Assembly (NCBI GenBank): GCA_964384935.1
Contig: CAYLLQ010000003.1
Span: forward strand, 1-24,654
Source of the DNA: Candidatus Woesearchaeota archaeon
GTDB taxonomy: Archaea > Nanobdellota > Nanobdellia > Pacearchaeales > GW2011-AR1
Direction: 5' to 3'
DNA length: 24,654 bases
Shown: piece by piece, positions 2,187-24,552 of the stretch
Layout of the letters: every line of letters starts with the position of its first letter
Position numbering within the stretch: position 1 is the stretch's first letter
Program-made: the position numbers and the translations under genes
Notes under the pieces: generated by a model
Database searches by the model: none
The model's input: only the letters and a program-made list of their open reading frames with translations
Told to the model about the DNA's origin: nothing

Positions 2187-2251
2187 TTATTCATTCCGTG
2201 GTTCTCGCTTCGTTGTGGATACAAAGTAAACTTTGCATAAGGAATGAATAA
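2187..2251 (+). ncRNA. Candidate structured element, copy 1 (three-way junction)
   Basis: Perfect 11-bp stem TTATTCATTCC/GGAATGAATAA encloses GTGGTTCTC-hairpin-TGTGGATA-CAAAG/TAAA/CTTTG-CATAA; the core is shared with 24482-24552. Strand is uncertain. Confidence 0.6.
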
Positions 2252-2269
2252 CTTTGTTGTTCTAAGGAA

Positions 2270-3706
2270 TTAAATTATCTTTTCTCCACCAATACAAAAA
2301 GAGCAAAAATGGTCTCTAGGTAATCCGGCTTTTTCAAAAGCATTAAACATTCCATTAACACTTAAGAAATGGACCTCTGCCCCAATTTGTTCCGATATTT
2401 CACTGTCTTCTCTATTTCTTTCTTGAACAGAATCTCGCACAACAAAATTATCCTCCGGGGGCATGTCTACTCCGTACAAACATCCTCTCTTTATTCCGTC
2501 TTCTCCAATTAGTCCTATCTTCGGGGTATAGTTTAATAAATAAATTTTTTTAACTCCAGCATTTTTCAAAACTTCAATGGCTCTTTTGGAGTTATTTCCT
2601 CTGATAGTTGAATCATCGATTAAAATAATTGTCTTATCTTTTAAAAAAGTTTTAGAACTTGTATCAAATGTTTCTGGAATTAAATACAAATTATCTTGGA
2701 TGGAGGTTTTTCTTTCCTCGGGAGTTGAACCCAAGAAAGCTCTTTCTCCTCGAGGCTTATAAAAAACATGCGCAAAAGGTATTTTTGTTTTTTGAGAATA
2801 CGCCCTAGCTGCAAACTCAGGGCATCGTGGAAGAAAGGTAACTAAATCTGCATCAATTTTAAATTCTTTAGCGAGTTCTTCTCCAAGAAATTCACGAACT
2901 TTTCTCACCGGAACCCCATTTATAATTGAATCAACACTCGAGACATAATTATATTCGAAAAAACAATATTTTGGAGTTGAAGTAATTACTTCTTCTTTGG
3001 TATAATCTCCTTCTGGAGAAAAATAATAAACACATCCGGGATCGATATCTTTCTTGTAACTCACTCCTTTTTCTCTAAAAAAGCAATCTTCAGAAGCCAT
3101 ACAATACTTTCCGTCTTTCCAACCTAAAATGCCCGGCTTTAATCCAAATCTATCTCTTAAGATTATAACATCTTTTCTATCTTTGCTTGCAATGGCTAGC
3201 GTGTAAGAACCGGGAATATTTTTTAAAATGCCTCTTTCCCCGTTGTCTTTAAAGTAATGTAAGAGTGCTTCTGTGTCGCATCCAGTTTTTAATTGAGTCT
3301 TATCTATTTTAGAAAAAAATTCTGGATTTATCTGTCCATTATGAACTCCAACTAAATCACAATCTCGAATAATGGTATGCCCTCCTCTTCTTTCTTCTAT
3401 CCCCCCAATGGTGTGTGGATGTGCATCTTCCAATATCTTATCCTTCCTTCCTCGAGTTGCATAACGAACATGTGCAAAAAAAGTATGATATTCATTTATA
3501 TTAAAAATTTTATATAAATCCTCCAAGTCAAACATCTCTACTTTTCCAACCCACTTAATAACATCTATTCTTTTGTTTCCAATAAATGCAATTCCAGTTG
3601 CTTCTCTTCCTCGGTGTTGTAACGATTTTATAAAAGAATAGATATCATGTAAACTATGTGCAACACAAAGTCCGCAGTTCTCTTTTAAGTTAAAACCCTC
3701 TGGCAT
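2270..3706 (-). CDS. purF: Amidophosphoribosyltransferase
   Basis: Short propeptide then CG (Ntn nucleophile), HVRYAT, HNGQ, PRPP-site ILIDDSTIRG, and Fe-S-type Cys residues CFFEY, GCLYGVD, CSFC. Confidence 0.88.
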   Translation of the reverse strand: MPEGFNLKENCGLCVAHSLHDIYSFIKSLQHRGREATGIAFIGNKRIDVIKWVGKVEMFDLEDLYKIFNINEYHTFFAHVRYATRGRKDKILEDAHPHTIGGIEERRGGHTIIRDCDLVGVHNGQINPEFFSKIDKTQLKTGCDTEALLHYFKDNGERGILKNIPGSYTLAIASKDRKDVIILRDRFGLKPGILGWKDGKYCMASEDCFFREKGVSYKKDIDPGCVYYFSPEGDYTKEEVITSTPKYCFFEYNYVSSVDSIINGVPVRKVREFLGEELAKEFKIDADLVTFLPRCPEFAARAYSQKTKIPFAHVFYKPRGERAFLGSTPEERKTSIQDNLYLIPETFDTSSKTFLKDKTIILIDDSTIRGNNSKRAIEVLKNAGVKKIYLLNYTPKIGLIGEDGIKRGCLYGVDMPPEDNFVVRDSVQERNREDSEISEQIGAEVHFLSVNGMFNAFEKAGLPRDHFCSFCIGGEKII

Positions 3707-3791
3707 AATCTTAAACTAAAAAGGTGTTTTTTATAGATTGTTGTGATAAACATTTAACTAGAATTTGGTTAGAATGCCCGAAAGGTATTAT

Positions 3792-3820
3792 GAAACTAGT
3801 TTCTCCAAAGCGCATATAAT
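3792..3820 (+). promoter_or_regulatory. Palindromic operator/promoter element, copy 1
   Basis: Perfect palindrome GAAACTAGTTTC followed by TCC...TATAAT; AACTAGTTTCTCC recurs at 6058-6070. Confidence 0.5.
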
Positions 3821-3841
3821 GTACCTTTTTCTAGTTTGTTT

Positions 3842-5293
3842 ATGAAAAAAACATTTTCGATTAAAGGGATGAGTTGTCAGTCGTGTGCTAATAGAATAAC
3901 TAGTTCATTAAAAGAAAAAGTAGATAAGATAGAAGTTGACTTTGTAAAAGAAAAAGCAAATATAGAATTTAATCCAGAAAAAATATCTGAAACTGAAATT
4001 AAAGAAATAGTTAAGAAACAAGGTTATGAATTTATTGAATCTGTTGGAAAAGAGATTAAAGCTCTAACCGAAAAAAATGGAAAGAATATTATTGGTTGGC
4101 TAGTTGTTGGGGGAAGCATCCTACTTTTTGCATATGTATTATATAGCCTATTTGGTTCTAATTTTTCTTTGCCCGAATTCGATTTTAATTCTTTAGGGGG
4201 AAACGCGTCTTTATTTTTATTGTTCTTTGCTGGGTTACTTACTGGTTTCCACTGTATTGCAATGTGTGGAGGATTTTTAGTTTCTTATACTGCTAAAAAC
4301 GCTATTAACGGGCACAAGTCTTTTTATCAGCATTTAGTTTATGGGGGAGCTAAAACGGTTTCATATACAATAATTGGGGCGCTGTTTGGATTGATAGGAA
4401 GCTTTTTTGTATTTTCTTCAACTCTTAGGGGAGGAATTGGTATTTTTGCGGGAGTTTTTATGGTCTTTTATGCCCTGAGTATGTTTGGTTTTAAATTCTT
4501 TAGAAAGTTTCAGTTTAACCCCAAGTTTTTGACAAGTATTGCCTCAAAGAAATATTCTGGAGCATATTTTGGACCAATGATGACTGGTTTACTTAATGGG
4601 TTATTTATTGCATGCGGTCCTTTGCAGGCGCTATATATCTATGCTGCTGGAACGGGAAGTCTGGTTCAGGGAGGATTAAGTTTAATGGCGTTCGGATTAG
4701 GAACTCTTCCGGTAATGCTCGGATTCGGAGGTTTTGCAAATGTAGTGAGTCACAATGCAACTAGAAAAATTTTGAAAGTATCTGCAATTATCGTTTTAAT
4801 CTTAGGATTAATTATGTTAAACAGGGGTTTGGCTTTAACTGGTTCAGGATATGACTACAAGAGTTTAATGGCTGGAACAAAAAATTTAGATGGTGTAAGT
4901 AATATTGTCTTAGACTCTGAAGGTTATCAGATAATAAAAATGGATGTTGATAAATACGGTTGGAGTCCAGATAATTTTGTTTTACAAAAAGGAGTTCCGG
5001 TCAAGTGGGTCATAAATGTTAAAGAATTGACTGGTTGTAATAATGCGATTCAAGCTCCTAAATTAAATTTAAAATTTGATTTGAAACAGGGAGAACAAAC
5101 AATTGAGTTTACTCCTGAAGAAGAGGGGGTTATACCTTGGAGTTGTTGGATGGGAATGATTCCAGGAACTTTTGTTGTAACTAGCGATGGAAGTGCAACG
5201 CAAGAACAAGTTAAAACCGCAACAGCACAAACAGCTTCTGCAGGAGGGAGTTGTGGGTGTGGTGGCGGAGGAAGTGGAACTTGTGGAGGGTAA
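3842..5293 (+). CDS. HMA + TauE/DsbD_2-type membrane domain + cupredoxin-like fusion
   Basis: GMSCQSC (HMA); GFHCIAMCGG and IACGP (DsbD_2/TauE); LTGCNN and WSCWMGM (cupredoxin-like); Cys/Gly tail. ATG 3842 is preferred over TTG 3836. Confidence 0.82.
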   Translation: MKKTFSIKGMSCQSCANRITSSLKEKVDKIEVDFVKEKANIEFNPEKISETEIKEIVKKQGYEFIESVGKEIKALTEKNGKNIIGWLVVGGSILLFAYVLYSLFGSNFSLPEFDFNSLGGNASLFLLFFAGLLTGFHCIAMCGGFLVSYTAKNAINGHKSFYQHLVYGGAKTVSYTIIGALFGLIGSFFVFSSTLRGGIGIFAGVFMVFYALSMFGFKFFRKFQFNPKFLTSIASKKYSGAYFGPMMTGLLNGLFIACGPLQALYIYAAGTGSLVQGGLSLMAFGLGTLPVMLGFGGFANVVSHNATRKILKVSAIIVLILGLIMLNRGLALTGSGYDYKSLMAGTKNLDGVSNIVLDSEGYQIIKMDVDKYGWSPDNFVLQKGVPVKWVINVKELTGCNNAIQAPKLNLKFDLKQGEQTIEFTPEEEGVIPWSCWMGMIPGTFVVTSDGSATQEQVKTATAQTASAGGSCGCGGGGSGTCGG

Positions 5294-5307
5294 AATGAAT
5301 TGTTTAA
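5291..5307 (+). repeat. 17-bp direct repeat, left copy
   Basis: TAAAATGAATTGTTTAA matches TAAAATGAACTGTTTAA at 6105-6121 in 16 of 17 positions. Confidence 0.5.
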
Positions 5308-5416
5308 AAACAAGAAAGTCTACGAAAGTTATCTAAACTATTTTGATCTTCTCTGGAAACAAGCCAAATCCTAAAAAACGGAACATTTTTATATGCCCTC
5401 CCCCTGTGTAATTCAT

Positions 5417-5491
5417 GCAGTAATATCGGCTTGGCGTTTCATCTCTTGATGGGACAAGGAGTGTTGCGGTTCTTCGAACCCTGGTTACTGC
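5417..5491 (-). ncRNA. Candidate structured RNA 3' of the RNase H-like gene
   Basis: GC-rich island. Closing stem GCAGTAA/TTACTGC with internal hairpins GGTTC-GAA-GAACC and CATC-AAGA-GATG (minus strand); begins 2 nt after the stop codon. Confidence 0.5.
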
Positions 5492-5493
5492 CA

Positions 5494-6015
5494 TTATTTT
5501 TTTATTAAATTTATTAGTTCTTCCGTCTTTAAATTTGTTTGTATATAATCTTTCAAATTATTTTTATCATTGTTCCTAAACGCCTTTCCTGCTTCGTCAA
5601 TAAGCGAAGGCTTTTCAAATTTTGTCCGGACAATATCCTCTAGTTTGAAACTAGGAATAAGTTTTATAAAATGATTAAACAGCATATATTTTATCTCGTG
5701 AAAATGACCATCAATATCATTACATAACTCTATCACAACTTCATCAACATATCCCAAATCTTTTATTGCTTTATTTATTAATTGAATAATTACTGCGGTA
5801 TGAAATCTTATTCTAAATCTATTTTTCTTAGCTTTCTCAGTTGGACCAAATATATTCAATTTCCCCCGTTTAAAATTTGAAATCACATCGTCCTTTAATT
5901 TTTGAGGAATATTGATTCCATAAATCTCTTTCTTATTTACAACCAAAATAACAGAATAATCTTTCTCAAATAAATCGCTTCCAGATTTATCTATTTGAAA
6001 TAAAGTTATCGCCAT
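5494..6015 (-). CDS. Hypothetical protein, possible RNase H-fold (DUF3800-like)
   Basis: N-terminal FQIDKSG resembles the DUF3800 (Y/F)xDESG strand; later acidic motifs LCNDIDG and SLIDEAG. The fold call is inference. Confidence 0.5.
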   Translation of the reverse strand: MAITLFQIDKSGSDLFEKDYSVILVVNKKEIYGINIPQKLKDDVISNFKRGKLNIFGPTEKAKKNRFRIRFHTAVIIQLINKAIKDLGYVDEVVIELCNDIDGHFHEIKYMLFNHFIKLIPSFKLEDIVRTKFEKPSLIDEAGKAFRNNDKNNLKDYIQTNLKTEELINLIKK

Positions 6016-6057
6016 TTTAGATGAAGAAGACCTAAATATTTTATAAATATATCTTGT

Positions 6058-6086
6058 AACTAGTTTCTCCCAAGGAGTTATATAAT
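6058..6086 (+). promoter_or_regulatory. Palindromic operator/promoter element, copy 2
   Basis: AACTAGTTTCTCC...TATAAT upstream of the small ORFs and copA; matches 3794-3806. Confidence 0.5.
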
Positions 6087-6104
6087 CTCTTAATCTCGGT
6101 TAAT

Positions 6105-6121
6105 TAAAATGAACTGTTTAA
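6105..6121 (+). repeat. 17-bp direct repeat, right copy
   Basis: See 5291-5307; contains the ATG of the 48-aa ORF. Confidence 0.5.
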
Positions 6122-6255
6122 TATGTAAAAAAGAAACCTACTCTGGAATAGGACATGGATGCAGACTGTGTGTAATGTCTTTAGAGAATAAAAGAAAAAC
6201 TTTTTGTTGCGGAGATTGTAAAGATAAATACTTGGAGATTAACGATGAGTTATGA
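6109..6255 (+). CDS. Small Cys-rich protein (48 aa; not in ORF track)
   Basis: MNCLICKKETYSGIGHGCRLCVMSLENKRKTFCCGDCKDKYLEINDEL, with CxxC, CxxC and CCxxC motifs; overlaps the next ORF. Confidence 0.65.
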   Translation: MNCLICKKETYSGIGHGCRLCVMSLENKRKTFCCGDCKDKYLEINDEL

Positions 6256-6415
6256 AAATTTTTGTGGAATGGGCAAATATTTAGTATTCGGAAGTTTTAT
6301 TAGTTGGACTATCCTAATTTTAATTATAGTTATACTTGTATTAATGCTATGGGTTTCTCACCGCTCGGTGTATCCCAAATTGCAGAATACGGGGGTAAAA
6401 CAAATAAGTAGGTAA
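6245..6415 (+). CDS. Small single-pass membrane protein (56 aa; not in ORF track) carrying an in-frame repeat insertion
   Basis: MSYENFCGMGKYLVFGSFISWTILILIIVILVLMLWVSHRSVYPKLQNTGVKQISR; long hydrophobic helix; ends 6 nt before copA. Confidence 0.65.
   Translation: MSYENFCGMGKYLVFGSFISWTILILIIVILVLMLWVSHRSVYPKLQNTGVKQISR
6359..6397 (+). repeat. Coding palindromic element, short copy A
   Basis: CACCGCTCGGTGTA-TCCCAAATTGCAGAATACGGGGGTA; lacks the central 30 nt of copies B and C. Confidence 0.75.
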
Positions 6416-6421
6416 AACAAA

Positions 6422-8701
6422 ATGACTAAAGTAACAATAAAAATAGATGGTATGACTTGTGCTTCGTGTGCAGGACATGTTAATAAAAGCCTTTCTAAAA
6501 TACCCGGAGTTAAAGTTAATAGTGTTAACGTGGTTATGGGAAAAGCTTTTCTAGAAGTAGAAGATGGAAAGAAGATTAGTGATGAGAAATTACGAGCTGC
6601 AGTAAAAGATGCAGGATACGAGCCGAAGGAGATTCAAAAAGAATCTTCGGCTTCTCAATCAAAAACAATGCACAGTTCTGAGCACACAAAGGTACAGAAT
6701 GAGGGGGCAGAAATTTCGGTATGGAAGAAAAAATTATTCGGAGTTTGGTTGTTTACAATTCCGATTGTGATAATTATGTATGGGGGTAAATTATTCGGAG
6801 GAGAAATTATTCCTATGATGTATATGACTCCAGTGTTACTTGTTTTATCGTTCCCAATTATTTTTGTTTTTGGTTTTCACACAGTTAAAATGGGATTGAG
6901 GGGATTTCTCAAATTCTATTTTGGAATGGATTCTTTGATTGCCTTGGGGACAATCATTGCTTATTTTACTGGAATTTTAACTTACTTTATAAATATAGAA
7001 AATTTTTCTGGAGTTTCCGGAATGATTATGACTATTTTTATCACGGGGAAATATATCGAAGCTAAAGCAAAGGGGAAAGCTACAGAAGAAATTAAAAAAC
7101 TTTTAGAGCTAGGAGCAAAGAGTGCGAGAATTCTTCGGGTTCCGCAAGGGGGTGACCCTAACGGGCCTAAAGAAGAAATTGAAGTTCCTATTTCAGAAAT
7201 TCAATTGGGAGACATTATGATTATAAAACCAGGAGAAAAAATTCCTACGGATGGAATTGTTTTCAAGGGAGAGAGTGCAGTGGATGAATCTATGATTACT
7301 GGTGAGAGTTTGCCAGTTGACAAAATTAAGGGTGCGCGGGTTATTGGGGCAACGATAAATCAAGATGGAATTCTTTATGTTAAAGCAACCAAAGTAGGAA
7401 AAGATACATTCTTAGCACATATTATAAAATTAGTTGAAGAGGCGCAAGGAACTAAAGTCCCAATTCAGGCGGTTGCAGATAAAATCACAAATATTTTTGT
7501 CCCAGTTATTTTAACAATTGCCGTTTTAACTTTTTTTGCTTGGATTTATTTTTCTAAAGATTTAGGGAGGTCTGTTGGAGTTGCAATTTCTGTTTTGGTT
7601 ATTGCTTGTCCGTGTGCTTTGGGTTTGGCTGTTCCAATTTCTTTAACAGTGGGTTCGGGTATGGGGGCCAAAAGAGGAATTTTAATTAGAAAAGGTGAGG
7701 CTATTCAAACAATGAAAGAGATTAAAACAATAGTCTTTGATAAAACTGGGACAATCACCGAAGGGAAACCAGTAGTTAGAGAGGTTTATTCAAAAAATGA
7801 AAAATATTTATTTGAAGTTGCTGGAAGTTTGGAAAAATTATCCGAGCATCCACTTTCAAAAGCAATTGTAAATTATTGGCACCGCTCGGTGTACGCCAAG
7901 GGGGCGCGAGAACCTCTCCGAGGCCCCAAATTGCGAAATGATGGGGCAAAATACCCCCTGAAGGTTAGTAAGTTCAAAATTTTAAGAGGAAGAGGAGTTG
8001 AAGGAATTATTGGGAGAAAAAATATTGTTATTGGAAATTCTACTTTAATGAAAGAAAAGAAAATTTCTTTGAAAGGTCTTGAGGAAAAAATCGAATCTTT
8101 TGAAGAAAAAGGTTATACTACGATGGCTGTTGCTGAAAATGGAAAAGTTTTAGGAATTATTGGTGTTGCTGATTCTGTTAAGAAAGATTCTATTGCTGCA
8201 ATTAGAGAATTAAAAAAACAAGGATACAAAACAATTATGATTACGGGGGACAATGAAAGAACAGCTAGAGCAATAGCAAAGGAAGTTGGAATCTCAGAGG
8301 TTATTGCGGGAGTTATGCCAGAAGACAAATCAAAGAAAGTTGAGGAGTTGCAAAAGACAGGAATGGTTGCATTTATTGGAGATGGGGTAAATGATGCACC
8401 AGCTTTGAAACAGTCAAATGTCGGAATTGCAATGGGAACTGGAACAGACATCGCGATTGAAGCGGGGGATATTGTTTTGGCTAAAGGAAGTTTAATGGGG
8501 GTTGTTCAAGGAATTAATTTAAGTAAAGCAACATTTTCAAAGATAAAGCAAAATTTATTCTGGGCATTTTTCTACAATTCAATTGCAATACCCTTAGCGA
8601 TTGGAGGGGTTCTAAATCCAGTTGTTGCAGAGTTAGCAATGGCTCTTTCAAGTATTAGCGTTATAACAAATGCAAATTTAATGAGGATGAAGAAGATATA
8701 A
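6422..8701 (+). CDS. copA: Cu(I)-translocating P1B-type ATPase
   Basis: GMTCASC, TGES, ACPCALG, DKTGT, SEHP, GDGVND, YN and MALSS motifs. Confidence 0.93.
7136..7167 (+). repeat. GC-rich in-frame insertion in copA ([11 protein letters not shown])
   Basis: 23 of 32 bases are G/C; two mini-hairpins TCC-GCAA-GGG and CCC-TAAC-GGG, in the ARILR..EIEVP loop. Confidence 0.5.
7880..7947 (+). repeat. Coding palindromic element, copy B (in copA N-domain)
   Basis: 68 nt, 44 G/C; 48 of the first 51 nt are identical to copy C; encodes [22 protein letters not shown]. Confidence 0.9.
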
Positions 8702-8740
8702 ATTCACCACATTTAAAACCTCTTTTCTCGTATATTCCCC

Positions 8741-8968
8741 ATGGCGTATTATATGAAGAATTGTGGAAGATGTAAGAAAGAGACAAAACATTTAGTTTAC
8801 AAAAAGGTCGGAGATAAGGTTAAGTTAAAGTGCGTGAATTGCCGAAGAGTTTGTCTTAAAGAAAAAAATCTCCATGAAATAAAACATTCTAAGTTCAAGG
8901 AAAAAAAGAATCTCGGTCCAATTAAAAGTCTACTTTTGCATTACGAAGAATTATTTAAGAAAAAGTAA
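8741..8968 (+). CDS. Small Zn-ribbon-like hypothetical protein
   Basis: CGRC and CVNC pairs; preceded by TATA-like TTTAAAA at about 8712. Confidence 0.6.
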   Translation: MAYYMKNCGRCKKETKHLVYKKVGDKVKLKCVNCRRVCLKEKNLHEIKHSKFKEKKNLGPIKSLLLHYEELFKKK

Positions 8969-9319
8969 TTATCTTGGAATAAACCCTTCAAGTTCATATG
9001 CAACCAATTTTCTTTGAGATTCTGAAGGCTCATCTGAATAAAGTTTAACAGTCCCATTAAATAACCTTTTTCCAAACAGGAAAGAGCCATCATCTCCAGT
9101 GTTTAAAGGATCTTTTCCCGGAATAGCCATAGCCATGTAAAGATCTCCAGAATCACCTTCTATCCAGTACCATCTTTCCCTAGATGGCGAGGGAGATCCT
9201 TTACTAACAATTCAGGGGGTAATCACTTCTTCCCCGATAACTCTCCCATCTACAAAATGATTGTTGGAACAACCAGCAAGTGTGAGGAGAGTTGCAATTG
9301 TTGCTAAAGCCCTTTTCAT
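8969..9319 (-). pseudogene. Lipoprotein-like ORF (116 codons) interrupted by one in-frame TGA
   Basis: MKRALATIATLLTLAGC signal/lipobox; TGA at 9214-9212 (codon 36); the frame stays open for 80 more codons to a TAA abutting the neighbour's stop. Confidence 0.6.
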
Positions 9320-9375
9320 TCTGAAAGAAGAGAATATATTGTAATTAATAAATTTATTGGCAATCGAATGTATAC

Positions 9376-10104
9376 TTAAATTTTATAAACTGCTCTAACA
9401 CTTGCAGAGATATCTTGTTCTGAAGGAGTTATACTTGTTGCCACTTGCTTTTCTTCGGATGTTAAGACTGCTCCAGCAGAATTATCATAAGCTCTTAATG
9501 GATAGTAATCATAACTGTCTACAGAAGTTGAAACTAATCTTCCGAGTCTTTTACCGAATCCTTGCGCAACAGCCTCTGCTTTTACTTTTGAATCTTGAGC
9601 TGCTAATTTTAATGCTTCTGATTTATATTGATTTTGTAACTCTTGGCTTAACTCAAAATTTATGTAACTTATTCCAACTCCAGATTTTACTCCAGCATCT
9701 ATAACCTCTCCTATTTTAGAGGATTCAGAAGTAGGAAGTTCAACTCTCAAAGAATGGGATGCGGTATAACCTTTTTCTACTTGTCTTCCATTTACCCAAT
9801 CGTATTGAGGATAAACGCTAAATCCTTGTGTTTGAATAGCCTTTTCCTCAAAGCCTAATTTTATTATTTCTGATTTCAAAGAATCAACTAGTTCTGAATT
9901 CTTCTGAGTTGCTTCTGCACTTGTTTTTGCGTTTGTCTGTACGTTGAAGTAAACTCCAACTAAATCTGGAACGGCTTTAACTTGCGCTTGTCCGTTTACA
10001 GTAATAGTATTTTGTGAAGAGTTTCCAAAAAAAGAAAATCCTAAGAAAGAAATAACAATTAATCCTACAACAATAATAGAAGTTATTTGAACTGATTTTT
10101 GCAT
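9376..10104 (-). CDS. SIMPL (DUF541) domain protein
   Basis: N-terminal TM helix, TITVNGQAQVKAVPD, ISYINFELS, ALKLAAQDSKVKAEAVA. Confidence 0.85.
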   Translation of the reverse strand: MQKSVQITSIIVVGLIVISFLGFSFFGNSSQNTITVNGQAQVKAVPDLVGVYFNVQTNAKTSAEATQKNSELVDSLKSEIIKLGFEEKAIQTQGFSVYPQYDWVNGRQVEKGYTASHSLRVELPTSESSKIGEVIDAGVKSGVGISYINFELSQELQNQYKSEALKLAAQDSKVKAEAVAQGFGKRLGRLVSTSVDSYDYYPLRAYDNSAGAVLTSEEKQVATSITPSEQDISASVRAVYKI

Positions 10105-16137: not shown

Positions 16138-19100
16138 TGGTATCAAAAATTAGAAAACGTGACGGAAGTGTAGTTCAATTTCAAGAGTTCAAAATTACCG
16201 AGGCTATCTGGAAAGCTGTTAAAGCGGTTGGAGGAACAGATAAAGAAAAGGCGGAACGCCTTGGAGAAGAAGTTATAAGACAGTTAAATGAAAAATTTGG
16301 TGAACTAGGAATTCCTTCGGTAGAAGAAGTTCAAGATTTAGTGGAAAAGATCTTAATTGAAGCGGGTCATGCTAAAGTCGCAAAAGCGTACATTCTTTAC
16401 AGAAAAAGTCACGACGAACTAAGAAGTATTAAGGGACTTTTTGATACTATAGAGGCTGTTGATGATTACATCGGATTAAACGATTGGATGGTTAAAGAAA
16501 ATTCGAATATGGGTTTTTCTTTACAAGGATTAAATAATTATATTGCTACAAAAATAATCACAAATTATTGGATGAGAAGAATTTACCCTGAAGCGGTAAG
16601 AACTGTTCACGAGAGTGGAGATTTGCACGTACATGATTTAGGCACTCTGGGAGCATATTGTTATGATGATAAAACAAAAATACTTACAGAAGCTGGTTGG
16701 AAATTTTTTAAAGATGTAAAAGAAGGTGAAAAAGTTGCAACAAAAAATATTGCTACGAGAGAAATAGAATTCCAAGTTCCTCATGCAAAACAAGTTTACA
16801 ATTATTCTGGAAAAATGTACTCTTATGAGGGAAGAAGCGTTTCTTTACTTGTGACTCCAGAACATAGACTCTTGGTTAGAAGAAAGGGAAAAACTAAATG
16901 GGAATTTTTAACCCCTCCAGATTTTAAATACGGGATGGAATTTGATAAGACTGGCTCGTGGAAAGGTAAAACCGCTAATTTTTTTCATGTTCCAGAAATG
17001 AGAGGGGGAAATCAAAAAAAGACAATTGGAAAAATAGAAATTAAAGACTATCTAGAGTTTATGGGTTGGTTTTTATCAGAAGGGTCGGTGTACGAACCAT
17101 CCAAAGGAGATTTTAGAATAAGTATTGCTCAATCGAGAAAAAAGTATCGGGAAGAAATTTGTTCTTTACTTAAAAAAATGAATCTCCATTTCAATGATTC
17201 TTCTGAATTCAACATTCATCTACACTCTAAAGAGTTGTACTATTATTTAAAGCAATTTGGAAAATCTGGAGAAAAATATCTACCCACAAACATAAAAGAA
17301 TTAAATTCAGATTTAATTAAAGTTTTTTTAACTACTTTATTTAAAGGGGATGGAAGTTATTCGGAAAAAAACAAGTTATTGAAATATTATACCAAATCTG
17401 AAAAGTTAGCTGAAGACGTATGTGAGTGCCTATTAAAAATAGGTCTTTGTGGAACAATTACTAAAAGGAAAGGGATGAATATCTATATGGTCTCTGTTGA
17501 AAATAATCATTTAACTCCGATATACCGAAAAAAAGAAAAAGTGGTTGAGTATTCTGGAAAAGTTTATGATTTTTCTGTCAAAAATACAACCTTGATTGTT
17601 ATGCGGAACGGGAAGATTGTGGTTTCGGGTAATTGCGTCGGGTGGGACTTGAAAGATTTATTGATTCTAGGATTTAAAGGAGTTCAAGGAAAAGTTGCAT
17701 CTAAACCTCCAAAACATTTTAGAACTGCCCTTGGACAAATGGTTAATTTTTTCTATACCCTTCAGGGAGAAACTGCAGGAGCGCAAGCATTTTCTAACGT
17801 AGATAGTTTATTGGCTCCGTTTATTCGATATGATAATTTAAGTTACAAGGAAGTAAAACAATCCATACAAGAATTTTTATTTAACTTAGCTGTTCCAACA
17901 AGGGTCGGTTTTCAGTGTATGTCTGAAGATACGGAAATCCTTACGCCAAATGGTTGGGCAAGCTATAATGATCTGAAAAAAGGGGATACAATCAAAACAT
18001 TTAATATTGAAAAAAGAGTGATTGAAGATAAACCAATTAGAAAATTATTTGCAAGGGAATACTCGGGAATTATGTATAATTTGAAAAATAGAATTCAGGA
18101 CCAATTAATTTCTCCCGGACATAGGGTGGTTAGAAAGAGATTTCAAACCGAAAATTATTATCTTGAACCAATAGAGGAAATTGATAAAATGAAATCTCCA
18201 TTTATCGTTCCTATTGCAGGGGAAAATGTTGTAAAAGATTCTAAAATATCCGATGAACAGATAAAATTAATGTCGTGGATAATTGGTGAGGGGAGCATTG
18301 AACGTCCAGGAAAAAGTCGATGTTGTTATAGAGTAAGCATTTATCAGTCTGAAATAAAAAACAATGAAAAGTATAAAGAAATAAAAAAATTGTTAGATCA
18401 TTTTAAATTAAAATATTCGGAGTACACTCAAAAAGGTATGGGATGTGATGTAAAACGAATAAGATTGGATGCAGAATCATCTAAAAAAATCCATTCGTGG
18501 TTTGGAACAAAAGAATCAATAAAATTTATTCCTCAAATTCTTTTAAATATGAGTCAAATGCAGTCACGATTATTTTTAGAAACATACATTAAAGCAGAAG
18601 GATTTGAAAATTGTAAAATTGCAACAACCGATCAGGAAATTTTAGACGGATTACAACAAATTGCAGTAAACTCTTGCTACGGATTTACGGTCTTAACAAG
18701 AAAACCAACAATAGGTAAAAAATTAATTTATGTTTTGAGATTAATAAATCATCAAGATAGCTATATTCAAAAAATAGAGAAAATAAATTATTCTGGAATA
18801 ATTTGGTGCCCAAACACAGATAATGAAACAGTAATTGCTAGGAGAAATGGAAAGGTTTTCATTACAGGAAATACTCCATTTACAAATGTTACAATGGATT
18901 TGAAAGTTCCAGAATACATGAAAAATGAACCGGTTATTATTGGTGGAAAACCTCAAAAAGAAACATACAAAGAATTCCAAAAAGAAATGGACATGTTCAA
19001 TAAAGCTTTTGCAGAGGGAATGTTAGAAGGAGATGCCGACGGAAGAGTCTTCACTTTTCCCATTCCAACTTATAACATCACAAAAGATTTTGATTGGGAA

Positions 19101-21155
19101 AATCCAGAATACGAGCCGATTTGGGAAATGACTGCAAAATATGGTATTCCCTATTTTTCTAACTTTATTAATTCAGATATGAATCCTGAAGACGCGAGAA
19201 GTATGTGCCCATTGGCAGGAGATGAAAAAGTATTAATAAAATCATCACGGGGGGGAGAGGTAGAGTTTGGAGAAATAAGAAATATCTTTAAGAGTCAAAA
19301 AGAAGATTATGAAATTTATTCAGATGGTGAATTTGTCAAAGGAACTTTTAATGAGTTCAAAAACCAGGAGATGATAAATGTTAAACTAGAAAACGGGCAC
19401 AGCATTAAAATGTCTGAAGAACATCTGAATTTTGTTTGTTGTGGGAAAGGAAATGAAGAACAAACGATAAAAGGAAAAGAGCTAAAAACGAGTATGTATC
19501 TTCCCTATTCTTTAAAAGAATATCTAGGTGAAGGAGGAAACAATGACTTAGGTTATTTTGTTGGTGCCTATGCTGGAGATGGAAGTTTTGATGGAGATAC
19601 GACGGTTGTTTTTTCACTTGAAGAAACTTATAAAAAGGAAGTTATAGAAAAGCTAACTAAGATAGCAAAAGATTTCTTTTCAGCACATGTTTCTATTTCT
19701 AAGGATAAAGACACTAAGTTAGTTACTCTTAGAGTTCACTCTAGAGCGGCGGTAGGATTATGTAAGGACTTTGTAGATGGAAAAGAAAGGGAAAAACATT
19801 ATAGATCGAAATTATTTGTTTCAAGTTTAGAATTTAGAAAGGGTGTTTTAGAAGGGCATTATTTGACTGATGGTGGAAATAGAAATAGAATTTATACTTC
19901 ATCAAAAAAAATGGTGGAAACACTAAATATGCTCGCAGCAACTCTGGGAACAACAACTTCGATTTATATAGATGACAGAGAGAGAAGACTAGGTACAGAA
20001 CCAAATTATTCTGTTTTGTTTTATCAATTAAATAGAGAAAGTTATGGTAATTTCTGGTTTAAACAAGATAATAAATTGTGGGTAAAAATAAAAGAGATAG
20101 AGAAAATATCAAATACCTCTGCTTATTGCTTTGAGGTGAAGGAATCAAAACCAATTTTCACAGTGGGTACAACGGGGATCTTGACACATAACTGCCGTCT
20201 TAGGCTCGATCAAACAGAATTAAGAAGAAGAGGGGGAGGTTTATTTGGAGCTAATCCACAGACAGGTTCAATAGGGGTTGTTACAATAAATATGCCTCGG
20301 CTAGGATTTATTTCAGCTGATGAAAAGGATTTTTTAAAAAAGTTGGAAGGATTAATGGAGCTTGCTAAAGAAAGTTTAGAAATAAAAAGGAAGGCTATTG
20401 AAAAGTTTACTGAAATTGGATTATATCCCTATTCAAAATTTTATCTAAACAATGTTCATAAGAGATTTGGAGAATACTGGAAAAATCATTTTGCAACAAT
20501 TGGTTTACTTGGAATGAATGAAGCAATAACAAACTTTATGTCTGGAGAAAATATCACAACTGAAAAAGGAAAAGCATTTGCAATTCGCGTTTTAGATTTT
20601 ATGAGAGAGAAACTACAAGAATATCAGAAGGAAACTGGAAATATTTATAATCTAGAGGCTACGCCAGGAGAAGGTACAACTTATCGATTTGCTAGAATAG
20701 ATAAAAAAACATACGGAAGAATTTTAGTTGCAAATGACAAGGCAGTTAAAGAGAGTGGAGCCAAACCATATTATACAAACTCAACACAACTTCCAGTGAA
20801 TTACACACATGATGTTTTTGAAGCGTTGGAATTACAAGACGATTTACAAACAAAATACACCGGAGGAACAGTTTTCCATACTTTTATAGGAGAAAAATTG
20901 CAAGCAGAGGGTGTTAAAAAATTAGTTAGAAAAATCGCAGAGAAATTTAGTCTTCCGTATTTTACAATTACTCCAACATTTTCTGTTTGTCCTAAACACG
21001 GGTACATTGCAGGAGAACATTATTACTGTCCAAAATGTGATCAAGAAATAGGATATGTAGAGGAAACGGAAATTGCTAATAGAGCTCAGGTCATAGATGC
21101 AGTTAGAGAAAAAGAGTATCAGGAGGAAAAGAAAGATGCCCCTGCAAATTACTGA
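16137..21155 (+). CDS. nrdD: Anaerobic (class III) ribonucleotide reductase with three inteins, lacking the C-terminal glycyl-radical motif
   Basis: N-terminal ATP-cone, HVHDL, GAQAFS, LEATPGEGT, YTGGTVFH, CPKH..CPKC; about 700 aa after removing the inteins. Confidence 0.93.
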   Translation: MVSKIRKRDGSVVQFQEFKITEAIWKAVKAVGGTDKEKAERLGEEVIRQLNEKFGELGIPSVEEVQDLVEKILIEAGHAKVAKAYILYRKSHDELRSIKGLFDTIEAVDDYIGLNDWMVKENSNMGFSLQGLNNYIATKIITNYWMRRIYPEAVRTVHESGDLHVHDLGTLGAYCYDDKTKILTEAGWKFFKDVKEGEKVATKNIATREIEFQVPHAKQVYNYSGKMYSYEGRSVSLLVTPEHRLLVRRKGKTKWEFLTPPDFKYGMEFDKTGSWKGKTANFFHVPEMRGGNQKKTIGKIEIKDYLEFMGWFLSEGSVYEPSKGDFRISIAQSRKKYREEICSLLKKMNLHFNDSSEFNIHLHSKELYYYLKQFGKSGEKYLPTNIKELNSDLIKVFLTTLFKGDGSYSEKNKLLKYYTKSEKLAEDVCECLLKIGLCGTITKRKGMNIYMVSVENNHLTPIYRKKEKVVEYSGKVYDFSVKNTTLIVMRNGKIVVSGNCVGWDLKDLLILGFKGVQGKVASKPPKHFRTALGQMVNFFYTLQGETAGAQAFSNVDSLLAPFIRYDNLSYKEVKQSIQEFLFNLAVPTRVGFQCMSEDTEILTPNGWASYNDLKKGDTIKTFNIEKRVIEDKPIRKLFAREYSGIMYNLKNRIQDQLISPGHRVVRKRFQTENYYLEPIEEIDKMKSPFIVPIAGENVVKDSKISDEQIKLMSWIIGEGSIERPGKSRCCYRVSIYQSEIKNNEKYKEIKKLLDHFKLKYSEYTQKGMGCDVKRIRLDAESSKKIHSWFGTKESIKFIPQILLNMSQMQSRLFLETYIKAEGFENCKIATTDQEILDGLQQIAVNSCYGFTVLTRKPTIGKKLIYVLRLINHQDSYIQKIEKINYSGIIWCPNTDNETVIARRNGKVFITGNTPFTNVTMDLKVPEYMKNEPVIIGGKPQKETYKEFQKEMDMFNKAFAEGMLEGDADGRVFTFPIPTYNITKDFDWENPEYEPIWEMTAKYGIPYFSNFINSDMNPEDARSMCPLAGDEKVLIKSSRGGEVEFGEIRNIFKSQKEDYEIYSDGEFVKGTFNEFKNQEMINVKLENGHSIKMSEEHLNFVCCGKGNEEQTIKGKELKTSMYLPYSLKEYLGEGGNNDLGYFVGAYAGDGSFDGDTTVVFSLEETYKKEVIEKLTKIAKDFFSAHVSISKDKDTKLVTLRVHSRAAVGLCKDFVDGKEREKHYRSKLFVSSLEFRKGVLEGHYLTDGGNRNRIYTSSKKMVETLNMLAATLGTTTSIYIDDRERRLGTEPNYSVLFYQLNRESYGNFWFKQDNKLWVKIKEIEKISNTSAYCFEVKESKPIFTVGTTGILTHNCRLRLDQTELRRRGGGLFGANPQTGSIGVVTINMPRLGFISADEKDFLKKLEGLMELAKESLEIKRKAIEKFTEIGLYPYSKFYLNNVHKRFGEYWKNHFATIGLLGMNEAITNFMSGENITTEKGKAFAIRVLDFMREKLQEYQKETGNIYNLEATPGEGTTYRFARIDKKTYGRILVANDKAVKESGAKPYYTNSTQLPVNYTHDVFEALELQDDLQTKYTGGTVFHTFIGEKLQAEGVKKLVRKIAEKFSLPYFTITPTFSVCPKHGYIAGEHYYCPKCDQEIGYVEETEIANRAQVIDAVREKEYQEEKKDAPANY
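16659..17633 (+). mobile_element. Intein 1 (325 aa) with LAGLIDADG endonuclease
   Basis: GAY|CYDDKTKIL...TPEH...VYDFSV...VSGN|CVGW; FMGWFLSEGS and LFKGDGS motifs. Confidence 0.9.
17916..18872 (+). mobile_element. Intein 2 (319 aa) with LAGLIDADG-like domain
   Basis: GFQ|CMSEDTEIL...SPGH...IWCPNT...ITGN|TPFT; WIIGEGS and YIKAEG motifs. Confidence 0.9.
19209..20192 (+). mobile_element. Intein 3 (328 aa if Pro1; starts at 19206 if Cys1) with LAGLIDADG endonuclease
   Basis: RSMC|PLAGDEKVLI...SEEH...AYCFEV...ILTHN|CRL; VGAYAGDGS and YLTDGG motifs. Confidence 0.88.
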
Positions 21156-21186
21156 TTCAAATTCACAAAAAAATGGAGGTGAAAAA

Positions 21187-21309
21187 ATGCAAAGAACAAA
21201 ATGCGAAGTAAATTCAAGAGTCTGCGGATACATAAGACCGGTAGCCCAGTGGAACGAGGGTAAAGAGGCGGAGTTCAAAGACAGAAAAACTTTCAAGGTT
21301 AGCGCTTAA
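21187..21309 (+). CDS. Stand-alone NrdD glycyl-radical domain (40 aa)
   Basis: GGAGGTG RBS just upstream; MQRTKCEVNSRVCGYIRPVAQWNEGKEAEFKDRKTF resembles the YSRVxGY(L/I)RP..WN.GK..EF.DR motif. Confidence 0.85.
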   Translation: MQRTKCEVNSRVCGYIRPVAQWNEGKEAEFKDRKTFKVSA

Positions 21310-21316
21310 TATTTCT

Positions 21317-21353
21317 AGGGAAATCCTTTTGGATTTTCCTTTTTTGTTTTTTT
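21317..21353 (+). terminator. Hairpin plus T-tract terminator
   Basis: AGGGAAATCC-TTTT-GGATTTTCCT followed by a long T-run. Confidence 0.7.
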
Positions 21354-21367
21354 GAGAGAAAGATTAT

Positions 21368-21850
21368 TTATCTTTCGGATGCTTCAATCATCTCTAAAAG
21401 ATTCACAGTATTTGCTTTGTTTAAACATGGAATTCCTTCACCAGTTGCATTTCCTACAGCATTATGATTTCCAGAAATAGCCATAAATTGTGATCTTCCA
21501 GATTCAACATCTCCTCTAACATGTCCATATACTGTCAATGCTGGATCGCACGAATCTCCTCCAACTGTTCCCAAATTAATATCCATAATATACCATTCAA
21601 ATTTGTTTGCTGGTGGAAAATCCGCAGGACTGCCAAGGGGAATTCCCATTTCGCTTAACATTTCATCAACAGAACCTGCTTTAGAAACCCTATAACCCGC
21701 AAATTTTAGAGAATCAGAAAGCATCCCGTCGTACATGTGATTATGCATTGCTAACAGTGCTCTACGTGTTGTTTCTTCCATATTGAATTCATGAAAAGGA
21801 GGCATATTAAAAACTTTTCGCTTCAAAGATAGATACTTGGAATAGTCCAT
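21368..21850 (-). CDS. Divergent CheY-like receiver domain protein (minus strand; ORF track says +)
   Basis: The ATG is the reverse complement of CAT at 21848-21850 and the stop is TTA at 21368-21370. AGYRVSKAGSVDEML, YIMDINL, MAISG and CLNK match receiver spacing. Confidence 0.65.
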   Translation of the reverse strand: MDYSKYLSLKRKVFNMPPFHEFNMEETTRRALLAMHNHMYDGMLSDSLKFAGYRVSKAGSVDEMLSEMGIPLGSPADFPPANKFEWYIMDINLGTVGGDSCDPALTVYGHVRGDVESGRSQFMAISGNHNAVGNATGEGIPCLNKANTVNLLEMIEASER

Positions 21851-21888
21851 TTTGATAAATATAAAAAGCCCGTTAGAGAATTAATTAT

Positions 21889-22590
21889 ATGGGAATCGTT
21901 GGACTTCAGGAAACAACCTTGATTGATTATCCTGGAGAAATTGCCTGCACTTTATTTTTTTTTGGTTGTAATTTTAGATGTGGATTTTGTCACAATCCAG
22001 AATTAGTTGTTGAGGAAAATAACAATAGAATTAGTGAAGAAAAGATTTTAGAATTCTTGAAAAAAAGGTGTGGACAGCTAGACGGGGTTTGTATAACTGG
22101 TGGAGAACCATTAATGAGTATTACAGAAGATTTCTTAAAAAAAATAAAGGATTTAGGTTATAAAATAAAAATAGATACAAATGGGAGTTTTCCTGAAAGA
22201 TTAAAAGACTTAGTCGAAAAATGTTTGGTTGATTTTGTTGCTATGGATATTAAAACAGATAAAGAAAATTATTCAAAAGTTTGTTCTTGTAATGTAGATA
22301 TTAAAAAAATTGAGGAAAGTATTCGGATAATTTCAAAACTAAAAAACTATGAATTTAGAACGACAATTTTAGAAGGAATGCATTCTGAAAACGAAATTGA
22401 GAATTTGTCTAAATGGTTAAACGAGATTTGCAGAGGAAAACCTAAAAAATTTATTCTGCAAGGTTTCAAAAATAAAGGGAAAATGATTGATTTAAAGTTT
22501 AGAAAAGAAAAAGATACTTCAGAGGAATATCTTAAAAAGATAAAGGAGAAAATTAAACAGTATTTTGAAAAAGTAGAGATTCGAGTCTAA
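21889..22590 (+). CDS. nrdG: Anaerobic RNR activating enzyme (radical SAM)
   Basis: IDYPG, GCNFRCGFCHNP, ITGGEP, DTNG and YEFRTT motifs. Confidence 0.92.
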   Translation: MGIVGLQETTLIDYPGEIACTLFFFGCNFRCGFCHNPELVVEENNNRISEEKILEFLKKRCGQLDGVCITGGEPLMSITEDFLKKIKDLGYKIKIDTNGSFPERLKDLVEKCLVDFVAMDIKTDKENYSKVCSCNVDIKKIEESIRIISKLKNYEFRTTILEGMHSENEIENLSKWLNEICRGKPKKFILQGFKNKGKMIDLKFRKEKDTSEEYLKKIKEKIKQYFEKVEIRV

Positions 22591-22624
22591 TAAATAATAT
22601 AAAGAGTGAAATAAATAGAATAAA

Positions 22625-23722
22625 ATGATAATCGGAGTGACTGGAACATTAGGTGCTGGAAAGGGAACAATTGTAGAGTTTCTTAAACAAAAAGGGTTCA
22701 AACATTATTCCGTTAGAGATTTTTTAGTTGCAGAAATGAATCGACTCGGAGTAGAGAATAATAGAGATAATATGGTTAAAGTGGCAAATCATTTGAGGGA
22801 GAAAAACTCTCCAAGTTATATTGCTGAAAAATTATATGAGCAAGCGGAAAAAGATGGCGGTAATTGTGTTATAGAGAGTTTGCGGGCAATTGGAGAGGTA
22901 GATGCTTTAAGAAAAAAAGGGGAATTTTTTTTATTTGCAATTGATGCAGACATTAAGTCGAGATATTCCAGAATAATTCTCAGGCAAAGTACAACGGACA
23001 ACATTTCTTTTGATGAATTTGTTGAAAATGAAAAACGGGAAATGAATTCAAATGACCCGAATAAGCAAAATCTTTCTAAATGTATCGCTATGGCTGATTT
23101 TATTTTTCAAAATAATAGTTCTATTCAAGAATTGTTTCGAAAAGTTGGGGAGGCGTTAGTAATCATTTCTTCTGAAGGAAAAATTGTTGAGGAAAAAAGA
23201 GATGCCCCGGAAGTTAAGATGGAAAAAGTAAATGTTAAAGAAATTCATCAAAGGCCTTCGTGGGATGAGTATTTTATGAAGATTATGGATGCTGTTGCAA
23301 CAAGGGCAACTTGCGATAGAGGAAGAAGCGGATGTGTTATTGCAAAGGATAAACAAATCTTAGTTACGGGTTACGTTGGATCTCCGATTGGAATTCCCCA
23401 TTGTGATGAAATTGGACATCAAATAAAAACAACCATTCACGAAGACGGAAGTAAATCGGACCATTGTGTAAGAACGACTCATGCAGAACAAAATGCAATT
23501 TGTCAAGCAGCAAAATTAGGAATTCCTATTAACGGGGCAACTCTTTATTGCAGAATGACCCCCTGTTCTACATGTGCTAAAATGATAATAAACTCTGGTA
23601 TAAAAAAAGTAGTATGCCAAAAAAAGTACCATCAAAGTAAAGAGTCTGAAGAACTTTTTTCTAAAGCAGGTGTAGAATTATTTACATTAAATAACGAAGT
23701 AGAGCAATATAAGAATCAATGA
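22625..23722 (+). CDS. P-loop nucleotide-kinase-like domain fused to dCMP deaminase
   Basis: GTLGAGKGT P-loop; C-terminal RPSWDEYFM, HAEQNAI and PCSTC motifs. Confidence 0.85.
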   Translation: MIIGVTGTLGAGKGTIVEFLKQKGFKHYSVRDFLVAEMNRLGVENNRDNMVKVANHLREKNSPSYIAEKLYEQAEKDGGNCVIESLRAIGEVDALRKKGEFFLFAIDADIKSRYSRIILRQSTTDNISFDEFVENEKREMNSNDPNKQNLSKCIAMADFIFQNNSSIQELFRKVGEALVIISSEGKIVEEKRDAPEVKMEKVNVKEIHQRPSWDEYFMKIMDAVATRATCDRGRSGCVIAKDKQILVTGYVGSPIGIPHCDEIGHQIKTTIHEDGSKSDHCVRTTHAEQNAICQAAKLGIPINGATLYCRMTPCSTCAKMIINSGIKKVVCQKKYHQSKESEELFSKAGVELFTLNNEVEQYKNQ

Positions 23723-24132
23723 AAATAAAAGTAAAAAAATTAGATAGTCGGGCGGTTATTCCGAGTTATGCAAAAGAAGGCGATGCTGGAATGGATGTTG
23801 TTGCCATTTCTAAAGAAGAAACAGAAAAGTATATTGAATATGGAACCGGTTTGGCTTTTGAAATTCCGGAAGGATATGTTTGTTTAGTTTTTCCGAGAAG
23901 TAGTCTTTCTAAAAAGGATTTAATTCTTTCAAATCATGTCGCGGTTTTGGATTCTGGTTACAGAGGGGAATTAAAATTAAGATTTAGAAGAGTTGGAGAA
24001 GAAGTTTATGATGTAGGAGATAGAATTGGACAAATTATGATTGTGCCTTATCCAAGAGTTGAATTTGAAGCAGTTGAAAAATTATCTGAAACAAGTAGAA
24101 AAGACGGTGGATTTGGTAGCACTGGAAATTGA
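23719..24132 (+). CDS. dut: Trimeric dUTPase
   Basis: AGMD, PRSS, VLDSGYRGE, DRIGQ and GGFGSTG motifs. Confidence 0.93.
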   Translation: MKIKVKKLDSRAVIPSYAKEGDAGMDVVAISKEETEKYIEYGTGLAFEIPEGYVCLVFPRSSLSKKDLILSNHVAVLDSGYRGELKLRFRRVGEEVYDVGDRIGQIMIVPYPRVEFEAVEKLSETSRKDGGFGSTGN

Positions 24133-24166
24133 AAATCTTTATAAGTTCATGGTTTTTATAAAAAAG

Positions 24167-24481
24167 ATGGTAGAAGAATTGACAAACGGGGAATTTGAAG
24201 AATTTATCAAGAAAGGAACTGTTTTAATTGACTTCTTTGCAGATTGGTGTATGCCTTGTATGATGATGGCTCCGGTAGTTGAAGAACTTTCTGAGAAATT
24301 TAAAGGCAAAATTAAAATAGGAAAAGTTAACATTGAAGATAATCAGGCACTAGCTCAGAAATACAATGTTAGTTCTATTCCAAATTTTATAGTACTCCAA
24401 GAAGGTAAAGTTGTTGAACAATTTGTCGGGGGAATGAGCGAAGAAGACCTAGAGGACAAATTAAATGGATACTTAGAATAA
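24167..24481 (+). CDS. trxA: Thioredoxin (second copy)
   Basis: IDFFADWCMPC; likely start is ATG 24167, downstream of the dut stop. Confidence 0.9.
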   Translation: MVEELTNGEFEEFIKKGTVLIDFFADWCMPCMMMAPVVEELSEKFKGKIKIGKVNIEDNQALAQKYNVSSIPNFIVLQEGKVVEQFVGGMSEEDLEDKLNGYLE

Positions 24482-24552
24482 TTTAATTTCTCTATGGTCC
24501 TCGAGCAGGGCTCTGTGGATACAAGGTAAACCTTGCATAAAGATAAATTAAA
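24482..24552 (+). ncRNA. Candidate structured element, copy 2 (three-way junction)
   Basis: Stem TTTAATTTCTCT/AGATAAATTAAA (11 of 12 pairs) encloses ATGGTCCTC-GAGC/AGG/GCTC-TGTGGATA-CAAGG/TAAA/CCTTG-CATAA. Confidence 0.6.

Follow-up and report, generated by a model that had tools for sequence, protein, structure and literature searches.

The window analysed here is a 24,654-nucleotide (nt) stretch of contig CAYLLQ010000003.1 (assembly GCA_964384935.1), and it carries two copies of a short structured element placed at the ends of two genes. Copy 1 occupies positions 2187-2251 and copy 2 positions 24482-24552, both on the plus strand, where a sequence-only reading of the window had put them. 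The first base of each copy lies directly 3' of the TAA of an open reading frame (ORF): ORF 1701-2186 encodes a MarR-like membrane helix-turn-helix (HTH) protein and ORF 24041-24481 a thioredoxin. The conserved 27-nt 3' part of the element occurs twice in the window, with 0.00 occurrences expected from 100 shuffles. Behind the CATAA that closes each core follows a direct repeat of the last ~10 codons of the host gene (2157-2186 versus 2241-2273 and 24452-24481 versus 24541-24565). We call the upstream copy of this gene end U and the downstream copy D. The first 11-12 nt of D, block O, form the 3' arm of the outer stem P1, and the 5' arm, rcO, is the reverse complement of O and abuts the stop codon of U. 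The order of parts is U - rcO - core - D, and the reading frame now terminates in the upstream copy U. As had been read from the sequence, P1 pairs at 11 of 11 positions in copy 1 and at 11 of 12 in copy 2.

In copy 1, U1 (2157-2186) is the functional 3' end of the HTH gene and encodes GMNNFIVLK*; U1 and D1 begin with the same 11 nt (block O, GGAATGAATAA). The P1 5' arm rcO1 (TTATTCATTCC, 2187-2197) is the exact reverse complement of this block and starts 0 nt from the stop codon. The core (2198-2240) scores 64.4 bits (E 1.4e-13) with R1, the covariance model of the core built in this analysis, and has no match in Rfam. It is made up of GTGGTTCTC (2198-2206), the variable tip GCTTCGT (2207-2213), TGTGGATA (2214-2221), hairpin P3 in the form CAAAG-TAAA-CTTTG (2222-2235) and CATAA (2236-2240). 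D1 (2241-2273) is the displaced older end of the HTH gene (GMNNFVVLRN*) and provides the P1 3' arm. It equals the native end of an 85%-identical orthologue at 28 of 33 nt; this orthologue ends in GMNNFVVLKN*, has no element and represents an empty site. The last bases of D1 (2270-2273) overlap the stop of a convergent 478-aa ORF on the minus strand (2270-3706), and the insertion of copy 1 has left zero spacer between this ORF and the HTH gene.

Copy 2, also on the plus strand, is built in the same way. The thioredoxin gene has its functional 3' end in U2 (24452-24481; EDKLNGYLE*), and rcO2 (TTTAATTTCTCT, 24482-24493), which begins 0 nt from the stop codon, pairs with the start of D2. The core (24494-24540; R1 58.1 bits, E 6.8e-12) contains, in order, ATGGTCCTC, the tip hairpin GAGC-AGG-GCTC, TGTGGATA, P3 as CAAGG-TAAA-CCTTG, and CATAA. 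The displaced older thioredoxin end D2 (24541-24565), taken together with the last AA of the core, reads KDKLNGYL*, and it differs from U2 in five synonymous codons and one non-synonymous codon.

Structural conservation was assessed on 22 distinct core sequences. The core is 43-55 nt long and consists of a conserved hairpin P2 (GTCCTC ... TGYGGAT), a variable P2 tip, the structure-conserved hairpin P3 and the CATAA tail. The GTCC/GGAT helix of P2 with its C-G extension is nearly invariant in sequence and 98% paired, which upholds the GTYC/GGAT pairing proposed for the two window copies. The P2 tip covaries (GC/GC, GAGC/GCTC, AAGC/GCTT, GAAC/GTTC), and P3 covaries as well (CAAAG/CTTTG, CAAGG/CCTTG, CAAAAT/ATTTTG, CAATTTC/GAAATTG and others), so the double change from CAAAG/CTTTG to CAAGG/CCTTG seen between the window copies is real. 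Altogether 90% of the cells are paired and 26 cells carry changes on both sides, a number reached by 0 of 500 shuffles. P2 and P3 are supported hairpins. An RTG/CAT helix, also proposed from the window, is unsupported, with 67% pairing. P2 contains an invariant G.U pair, which favours the sense strand; covariation of this kind does not separate RNA from single-stranded DNA.

The outer stem has a different origin. The two P1 stems had been described as wholly unlike in sequence and yet both paired. Their pairing stands; they are unlike because the two target genes differ, and since the stems are target-derived, their difference within the window is no independent covariation. In a pair of orthologous insertions (G192 and L012), rcO changes in step with O (GGAATTTTTCG versus GGATTTTTAAA) and the P1 pairing is kept. 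Therefore P1 probably matters to the element. The 3' end of the core directly adjoins D, the resident gene end, and the site of contact is a purine-rich RG.

The earlier impression that the element is no known riboswitch or ribozyme holds at the Rfam level. Rfam 15 at gathering thresholds gives 0 matches over the whole window, and at E<=10 the best match around copy 1 is an unrelated snoRNA with 20.7 bits against a threshold of 90 bits. For self-cleavage, an activity also considered from the sequence, we found nothing in support and no Rfam ribozyme match. A hammerhead or other small self-cleaving ribozyme was rejected, as the CUGANGA...GAAA core is absent from both strands of the core alignment. 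By eye, the alignments contain no hairpin, twister or bulge-helix-bulge motif. ARAGORN detects no tRNA in the window, and a tRNA-like reading of the element was rejected. A look through the literature on DPANN or Pacearchaeota repeats and similar elements gave nothing relevant. No description of the element was found in Rfam or in the searchable literature, and it is apparently undescribed.

A covariance-model search, suggested on the strength of the two window copies, did find homologues beyond the window and, among them, the covariation in the P2 tip and P3. R1 matches 10 of 201 genomes of the same Pacearchaeota family and none of 147 genomes that represent 65 further families of the phylum. 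Bearer genomes have 1-7 copies each, and metagenome contigs contain more, often as tandem arrays; one metagenome match (L011) was discarded as chance owing to its GC-rich context and 16 bits. The genome of the window (G000; 0.71 Mb, 32% GC, 79% complete) has four full copies, at the MarR-like HTH, thioredoxin, seryl-tRNA synthetase (SerRS) and PolD-DP2-like genes, all co-oriented with the upstream gene. The two copies outside the window follow SerRS on contig 35 and, in a short form, the PolD-DP2-like gene on contig 16, and the genome also has solo P3 hairpins. Around the SerRS element on contig 35 (L003:1460-1570) lie three copies of hairpin TACAAAGTAAACTTTGCATA, the first with A as both partners of one pair.

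Across the family the element is found at the 3' ends of housekeeping genes and tRNAs and also at the 5' ends of genes. Its hosts include SerRS, an AspRS-like synthetase, GyrB, PolD, thioredoxin, a YbjQ-like protein (on three separate contigs), ribosomal protein L40e and tRNA 3' ends. The U-rcO-core-D order, checked copy by copy, is present at ~17 loci of protein genes and at several tRNA or tRNA-like ones. All 3'-end copies share the orientation of their gene, and in most of them rcO starts where the reading frame ends. The stop codon is sometimes supplied by rcO (G152, G149_a) or by ATAG of the core (G157_C12b), and at a tRNA of G088 rcO starts after a TTTT run.

Some loci at RNA genes deserve separate mention. 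Two tRNA genes beside arrays (L038:1679-1782 and L068:1566-1653) are detected by Rfam and missed by ARAGORN in bacterial mode; because they are 104 and 88 nt long, they presumably contain introns. The tRNA-like 3' ends at L064 and L067 are found by neither program. In the RNA-gene-end arrays of G157 (L064, L067, L068), a second repeat lacking P2, ACTATG-(CTCGCCAACACAGTTGCTTTG or variant)-CATAG, is located ~40-110 nt 3' of the core. It comes after a different O-loop-rcO hairpin, and its own hairpin is the P3 of the full core at G157_C14b.

One explanation of these positions is the RNA motif of the 3' untranslated region (UTR) that the sequence-only reading had offered. A cis-acting structured RNA of gene boundaries might act as a 3'-end stabilizer, a processing signal or a translation-coupled switch, kept for the benefit of the host and rarely copied between genes. 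In the switch version, rcO would pair with U as long as the mRNA is not being translated and would change to D once U is covered by ribosomes. The shared orientation of all 3'-end copies with their genes, the start of rcO at the stop codon, the sense strand indicated by the P2 G.U pair and the P1 pairing retained in G192 and L012 in spite of a different O are in line with such an RNA. Conservation in place is too: the elements after the PolD-like gene of G000 and G078 are orthologous and identical at 29 of 32 positions versus 61% at the third codon positions of the gene (P = 2e-4). At this locus U is nearly identical to D within each genome, yet U and D differ between the genomes, and the intergenic DNA past D is unalignable. 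Such strong core conservation means selection, whether for spreading or for a function acquired by co-option. Upstream of genes in G055 and G026 (gyrB, rpl2 and others), the element has a GGAG resembling a Shine-Dalgarno sequence in the P3 loop, and the start codon comes from CATA-ATG. These copies are probably co-opted. In G055 (L039, L043, L034) a hairpin AAAAATTCAGGAGAATTTTCATA-ATG precedes several genes, gyrB among them, with and without P2, and it appears to supply ribosome-binding site and start codon. A role confined to 3' UTRs does not account for every copy, because some lie in 5' UTRs and one is antisense to local transcription. The cis-acting RNA also leaves unexplained the coding-end duplicate at every copy, the arrays and an identical unit at three G157 RNA-gene ends described below; 191 of 201 family genomes lack the element, as do close orthologues, and no Rfam family matches it. 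We regard this explanation as unlikely, although worth keeping in view.

The record of insertion and movement points to a mobile element. Besides the HTH orthologue, the thioredoxin orthologue of G078 (76% identical) and the SerRS gene of G078 are empty sites. On one G157 contig, a core identical at 52 of 52 positions is present at two genes, each with its own rcO and its own U, and the duplication at one of the two genes is perfect over at least 55 nt. These loci indicate that retargeting happens and creates a new duplication and a new rcO. Movement of a preformed unit is seen at three RNA-gene 3' ends of G157, one of them a confirmed tRNA, which all have GGGCGTCAAAATC-AAA-GATTTTAACCCC followed by the core; D and the trailer differ among the three. 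Judging from this comparison, U, rcO and core travel as one block, too. In L012 and L017, arrays at two other genes include an HTH-derived unit that consists of the U of the HTH gene, the rcO also seen in window copy 1, and a core. Contig L018, which derives from another sample, has the left context of L017 joined to the right context of L012 across this common unit, either through a real rearrangement or through chimeric assembly. Multi-copy occurrence at unrelated genes, duplicated gene-end flanks, arrays, empty orthologue sites and one unit at several loci all agree with the small mobile DNA element that had been named as the other possibility for the window. Two look-ups were uninformative. 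Among HTH homologues ending in FIVLK like U1, P0072 has this as a native end without an element and the contig of P0026 breaks off at the stop codon, so they give no test of foreign origin; an exact-protein look-up for an element-free SerRS allele found none on record.

An ordinary miniature transposon, moved in trans by a transposase making long staggered cuts, would have the duplicated gene end as its target-site duplication. Such a transposon might resemble a miniature inverted-repeat transposable element (MITE) or a palindrome-associated transposable element (PATE). The core is multi-copy and dispersed, and young copies (C35, G110_b, G157_C12a, L017) show duplications that are perfect over 12 to at least 55 nt. 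The core has no terminal inverted repeats: its 5' end RTRGTCCTC and its 3' end TTGCATAA are not complementary, and the flanking inverted repeat is target-derived and different in every copy. On these grounds we rejected membership in the MITEs. A fixed short target-site duplication was likewise rejected, as the direct repeats span 12 to >70 nt, rcO is target-specific, and at three G157 loci U is constant and D varies, which speaks against the pure form of the transposon. The divergence of U and D is, moreover, codon-periodic. Neither Y1 nor TnpB was found in the genomes searched, and an IS200/IS605-derived element (PATE) was set aside for that reason. A miniature transposon of the ordinary kind thus seems improbable.

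The codon pattern comes from eleven U/D pairs. The differing codons comprise 42 synonymous and 11 non-synonymous ones, and of the 64 base differences 47 affect the third position of a codon. Stops persist, with TAA/TAG exchanges among them, and the D stop is usually in register. For a neutrally decaying duplicate, ~40% synonymous and ~45% third-position changes are expected, and neutral decay of a frozen copy is rejected with P = 6e-9 (synonymous) and P = 5e-6 (third positions). Because the differences are almost only synonymous, U and D were, as far as their codons tell, both once functional coding gene ends. The simple scheme of a target-site duplication followed by neutral decay is ruled out by this test and by the unit shared among three G157 loci. 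The first 11 nt of U and D are identical at 64 of 66 positions and the remainder at 88 of 127 (P = 1e-6). An identical block next to two independently evolved coding arms is the signature of recombination of the att (attachment-site) type. A target of a diversity-generating retroelement (variable and template repeat) was rejected as well, since the U/D differences involve all base types and fall at third codon positions, and reverse transcriptase is not associated with the element. Contig 11 of G000 (L045, 11719-12327, minus strand) does contain one 339-aa reverse transcriptase ORF (RVT_1, 87 bits), and its size suggests a diversity-generating retroelement.

The same pattern could arise if D were still in use, with the segment between the O blocks cut out at the mRNA or DNA level or skipped by ribosomes, like an intron or a 'byp' element. 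The overwhelmingly synonymous differences, the D stop in register and the identity of O in U and D would then be expected. We rate this lower because U is complete with its own stop, which makes removal needless, some D copies are damaged, and no bulge-helix-bulge can form. In G149_a, the D copy has FLRD in place of the conserved FPRD and has lost two codons, and D1 of L014 is frameshifted. Arrays hold several D copies, not all of which could be used. An archaeal bulge-helix-bulge intron was rejected by inspection: GTCC/GGAT is a 4-bp helix, but the adjoining unpaired bases form a 2x3 internal loop and a junction, and there is no exon pairing, as U and D repeat each other in direct orientation and are not complementary. 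Continued use of D is, in our estimate, improbable too.

Cores might instead be the scars or att junctions of larger plasmids or viruses that integrate at gene 3' ends. The loci do have the classic att signature in the Campbell sense, with a direct repeat of the target 3' end that begins with an identical block and then diverges, and with both tRNA and protein-gene 3' ends among the targets. Only 43-55 nt separate the repeats at >25 loci, no cargo-bearing copy was seen, and the target block differs from gene to gene, beyond what one integrase site would allow. In viral contigs, the G000-type 21-nt pattern has 0 matches and a P2-only pattern has 4 (2 distinct), which is about the chance level, with unrelated contexts. 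We hold the scar explanation to be highly improbable. On a 39-kb viral contig (L053:1231-1250), an exact P2-like sequence, TTAGTCCTCGCTTCGCTGCGGAT, is located directly upstream of a minus-strand start codon and reads GAGGAC there, resembling a ribosome-binding site.

We believe, with a probability of about 0.58, that the element belongs to a family of non-autonomous integrative mini-cassettes at gene termini, confined, as sampled, to a single family of the DPANN Pacearchaeota. The anatomy of the cassette is well supported; the insertion mechanism, the enzyme and a DNA or RNA intermediate are what we infer from it. The full unit comprises U (the last 4-25 codons of the host gene), rcO (a 7-13-nt inverted copy of O) and the 43-55-nt core. 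A new insertion might begin with a replicative or repair-type reaction that joins the core beside O; the gene end would be re-synthesized upstream, and a snap-back copy of O laid down to give the closing stem. The folded junction, probably of single-stranded DNA or RNA, would set the 3' end of the core beside O and be recognized by a host enzyme. The host gene now finishes in U, with D left behind the element. Once formed, the unit could spread as a block through recombination in the identical O block, like the att core of an integrative element, U being the element-linked version of the gene end and D the chromosome's own. Slippage or unequal exchange between U and D would let arrays expand, contract and homogenize, and would therefore explain the perfectly repeated arrays of L013, G055_C11, G088 and G157_C14b.

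A bolder version of the mini-cassette takes it to be a retargetable, guide-directed insertion device, in which rcO (7-13 nt) picks the target by pairing with O. As a homing system it would involve little protein and would derive its guide afresh from every target it enters. The junction would bring the 3' end of the core to the phosphodiester immediately 5' of O. Insertion would then be completed either by a host enzyme (nuclease, ligase or polymerase) or by the nucleic acid itself, and the gene end would be re-copied, making the hit harmless. We consider this version rather doubtful.

Several observations weigh against the mini-cassette family. No enzyme could be assigned to it: Y1 transposase (PF01797) is found in none of G000, G055, G149, G110, G088 and G026, and a TnpB-type domain (PF07282) is not found in G000, absences that are unproven because the genomes are incomplete (79-92% complete for the six, 79% for G000). 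Reverse transcriptase shows no association, occurring in 3 of 7 first bearers versus 57 of 151 family genomes overall. Translation of D once the element has been removed would produce the synonymous U/D pattern as well. As L018 joins both contexts, gene conversion or a chimeric assembly could account for the heterologous unit in the L012 and L017 arrays. The contig 35 copy at SerRS is without rcO and instead has its P3 hairpin duplicated on both sides of P2, as in the G055 arrays, where P3 hairpins likewise flank P2. The copy G110_a is antisense, between tRNA-His and a gene start. That rcO starts exactly at the end of the reading frame is predicted neither by staggered cutting nor by recombination in O. 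Lastly, the low copy number (1-7 per genome) and the seemingly constrained contig 16/G078 copy fit a host function too.

What the cassette would mean for its hosts is that a 60-130-nt element enters essential genes (aminoacyl-tRNA synthetases, GyrB, PolD, ribosomal proteins, tRNAs) at their last codons and leaves them unharmed because it carries or creates a spare gene end. To our knowledge, DPANN archaea have tiny genomes and few recognized mobile elements. If the mini-cassette is real, its arrays are a natural record of successive gene-end versions, and the mechanistic question is what makes the target-templated stem and why it starts at the end of the reading frame. Annotation is affected as well, since a displaced gene end or an array can look like a small ORF, a terminator or an assembly error.

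Several known systems resemble the cassette in part. Three-way-junction ribozymes (hammerhead, twister-sister, hairpin) share its size, three helices at a junction, variable arms around a conserved center and tandem units. In contrast, the cassette has no Rfam ribozyme match to E 10, its junction is nearly without unpaired conserved nucleotides, and the known catalytic cores are absent. Small dispersed repeats of bacteria, such as repetitive extragenic palindromes and bacterial interspersed mosaic elements (REP/BIME), Correia elements, Rickettsia palindromic elements, MITEs and PATEs, are likewise tens of nt long, hairpin-forming, non-coding and multi-copy; they lie at the borders of genes or, where tolerated, inside them, and some have been recruited for expression. 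Unlike them, the cassette has neither terminal inverted repeats nor a fixed short target duplication, RAYT/Y1 was not found, and it carries a host coding end together with a target-templated stem.

The integron attC site is closer in architecture. It is structured, starts right after a stop codon, keeps its structure as its sequence varies, forms arrays, and makes folded single-strand recombination plausible. Membership was rejected because the center (P2) of the cassette is conserved and its outer arms vary, the reverse of attC, and because its loci are housekeeping genes dispersed through the genome (no search for IntI was made). Its units also duplicate the neighboring gene's own end in place of carrying foreign ORFs.

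Campbell-type att elements insert into the 3' ends of tRNA or protein genes and replace the gene end. CTX-phi is an integrative mobile element exploiting Xer (IMEX) that integrates as folded single-stranded DNA, and IMEX need no recombinase gene of their own. XerA-type enzymes are, as far as we know, near-universal in archaea, and their presence is uninformative. The cassette differs from att elements and IMEX in its unit of 60-130 nt without cargo, in a target block that varies by gene, and in the inverted copy of that block carried by each unit. No dif-like 11-6-11 site was recognized in it and no recombinase is tied to it; the published background on archaeal Xer/dif (PMC2958812) has no sequence in its text for comparison. 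In other respects the likeness is close. The cassette supplies a replacement 3' end that leaves the gene intact, it has an identical short block O followed by divergent arms, it builds tandem arrays at one gene end, tRNA 3' ends are among its targets, and its folded strand could form a duplex site. If this is true, the att-site logic of large integrative elements reaches down to a gene-less cassette.

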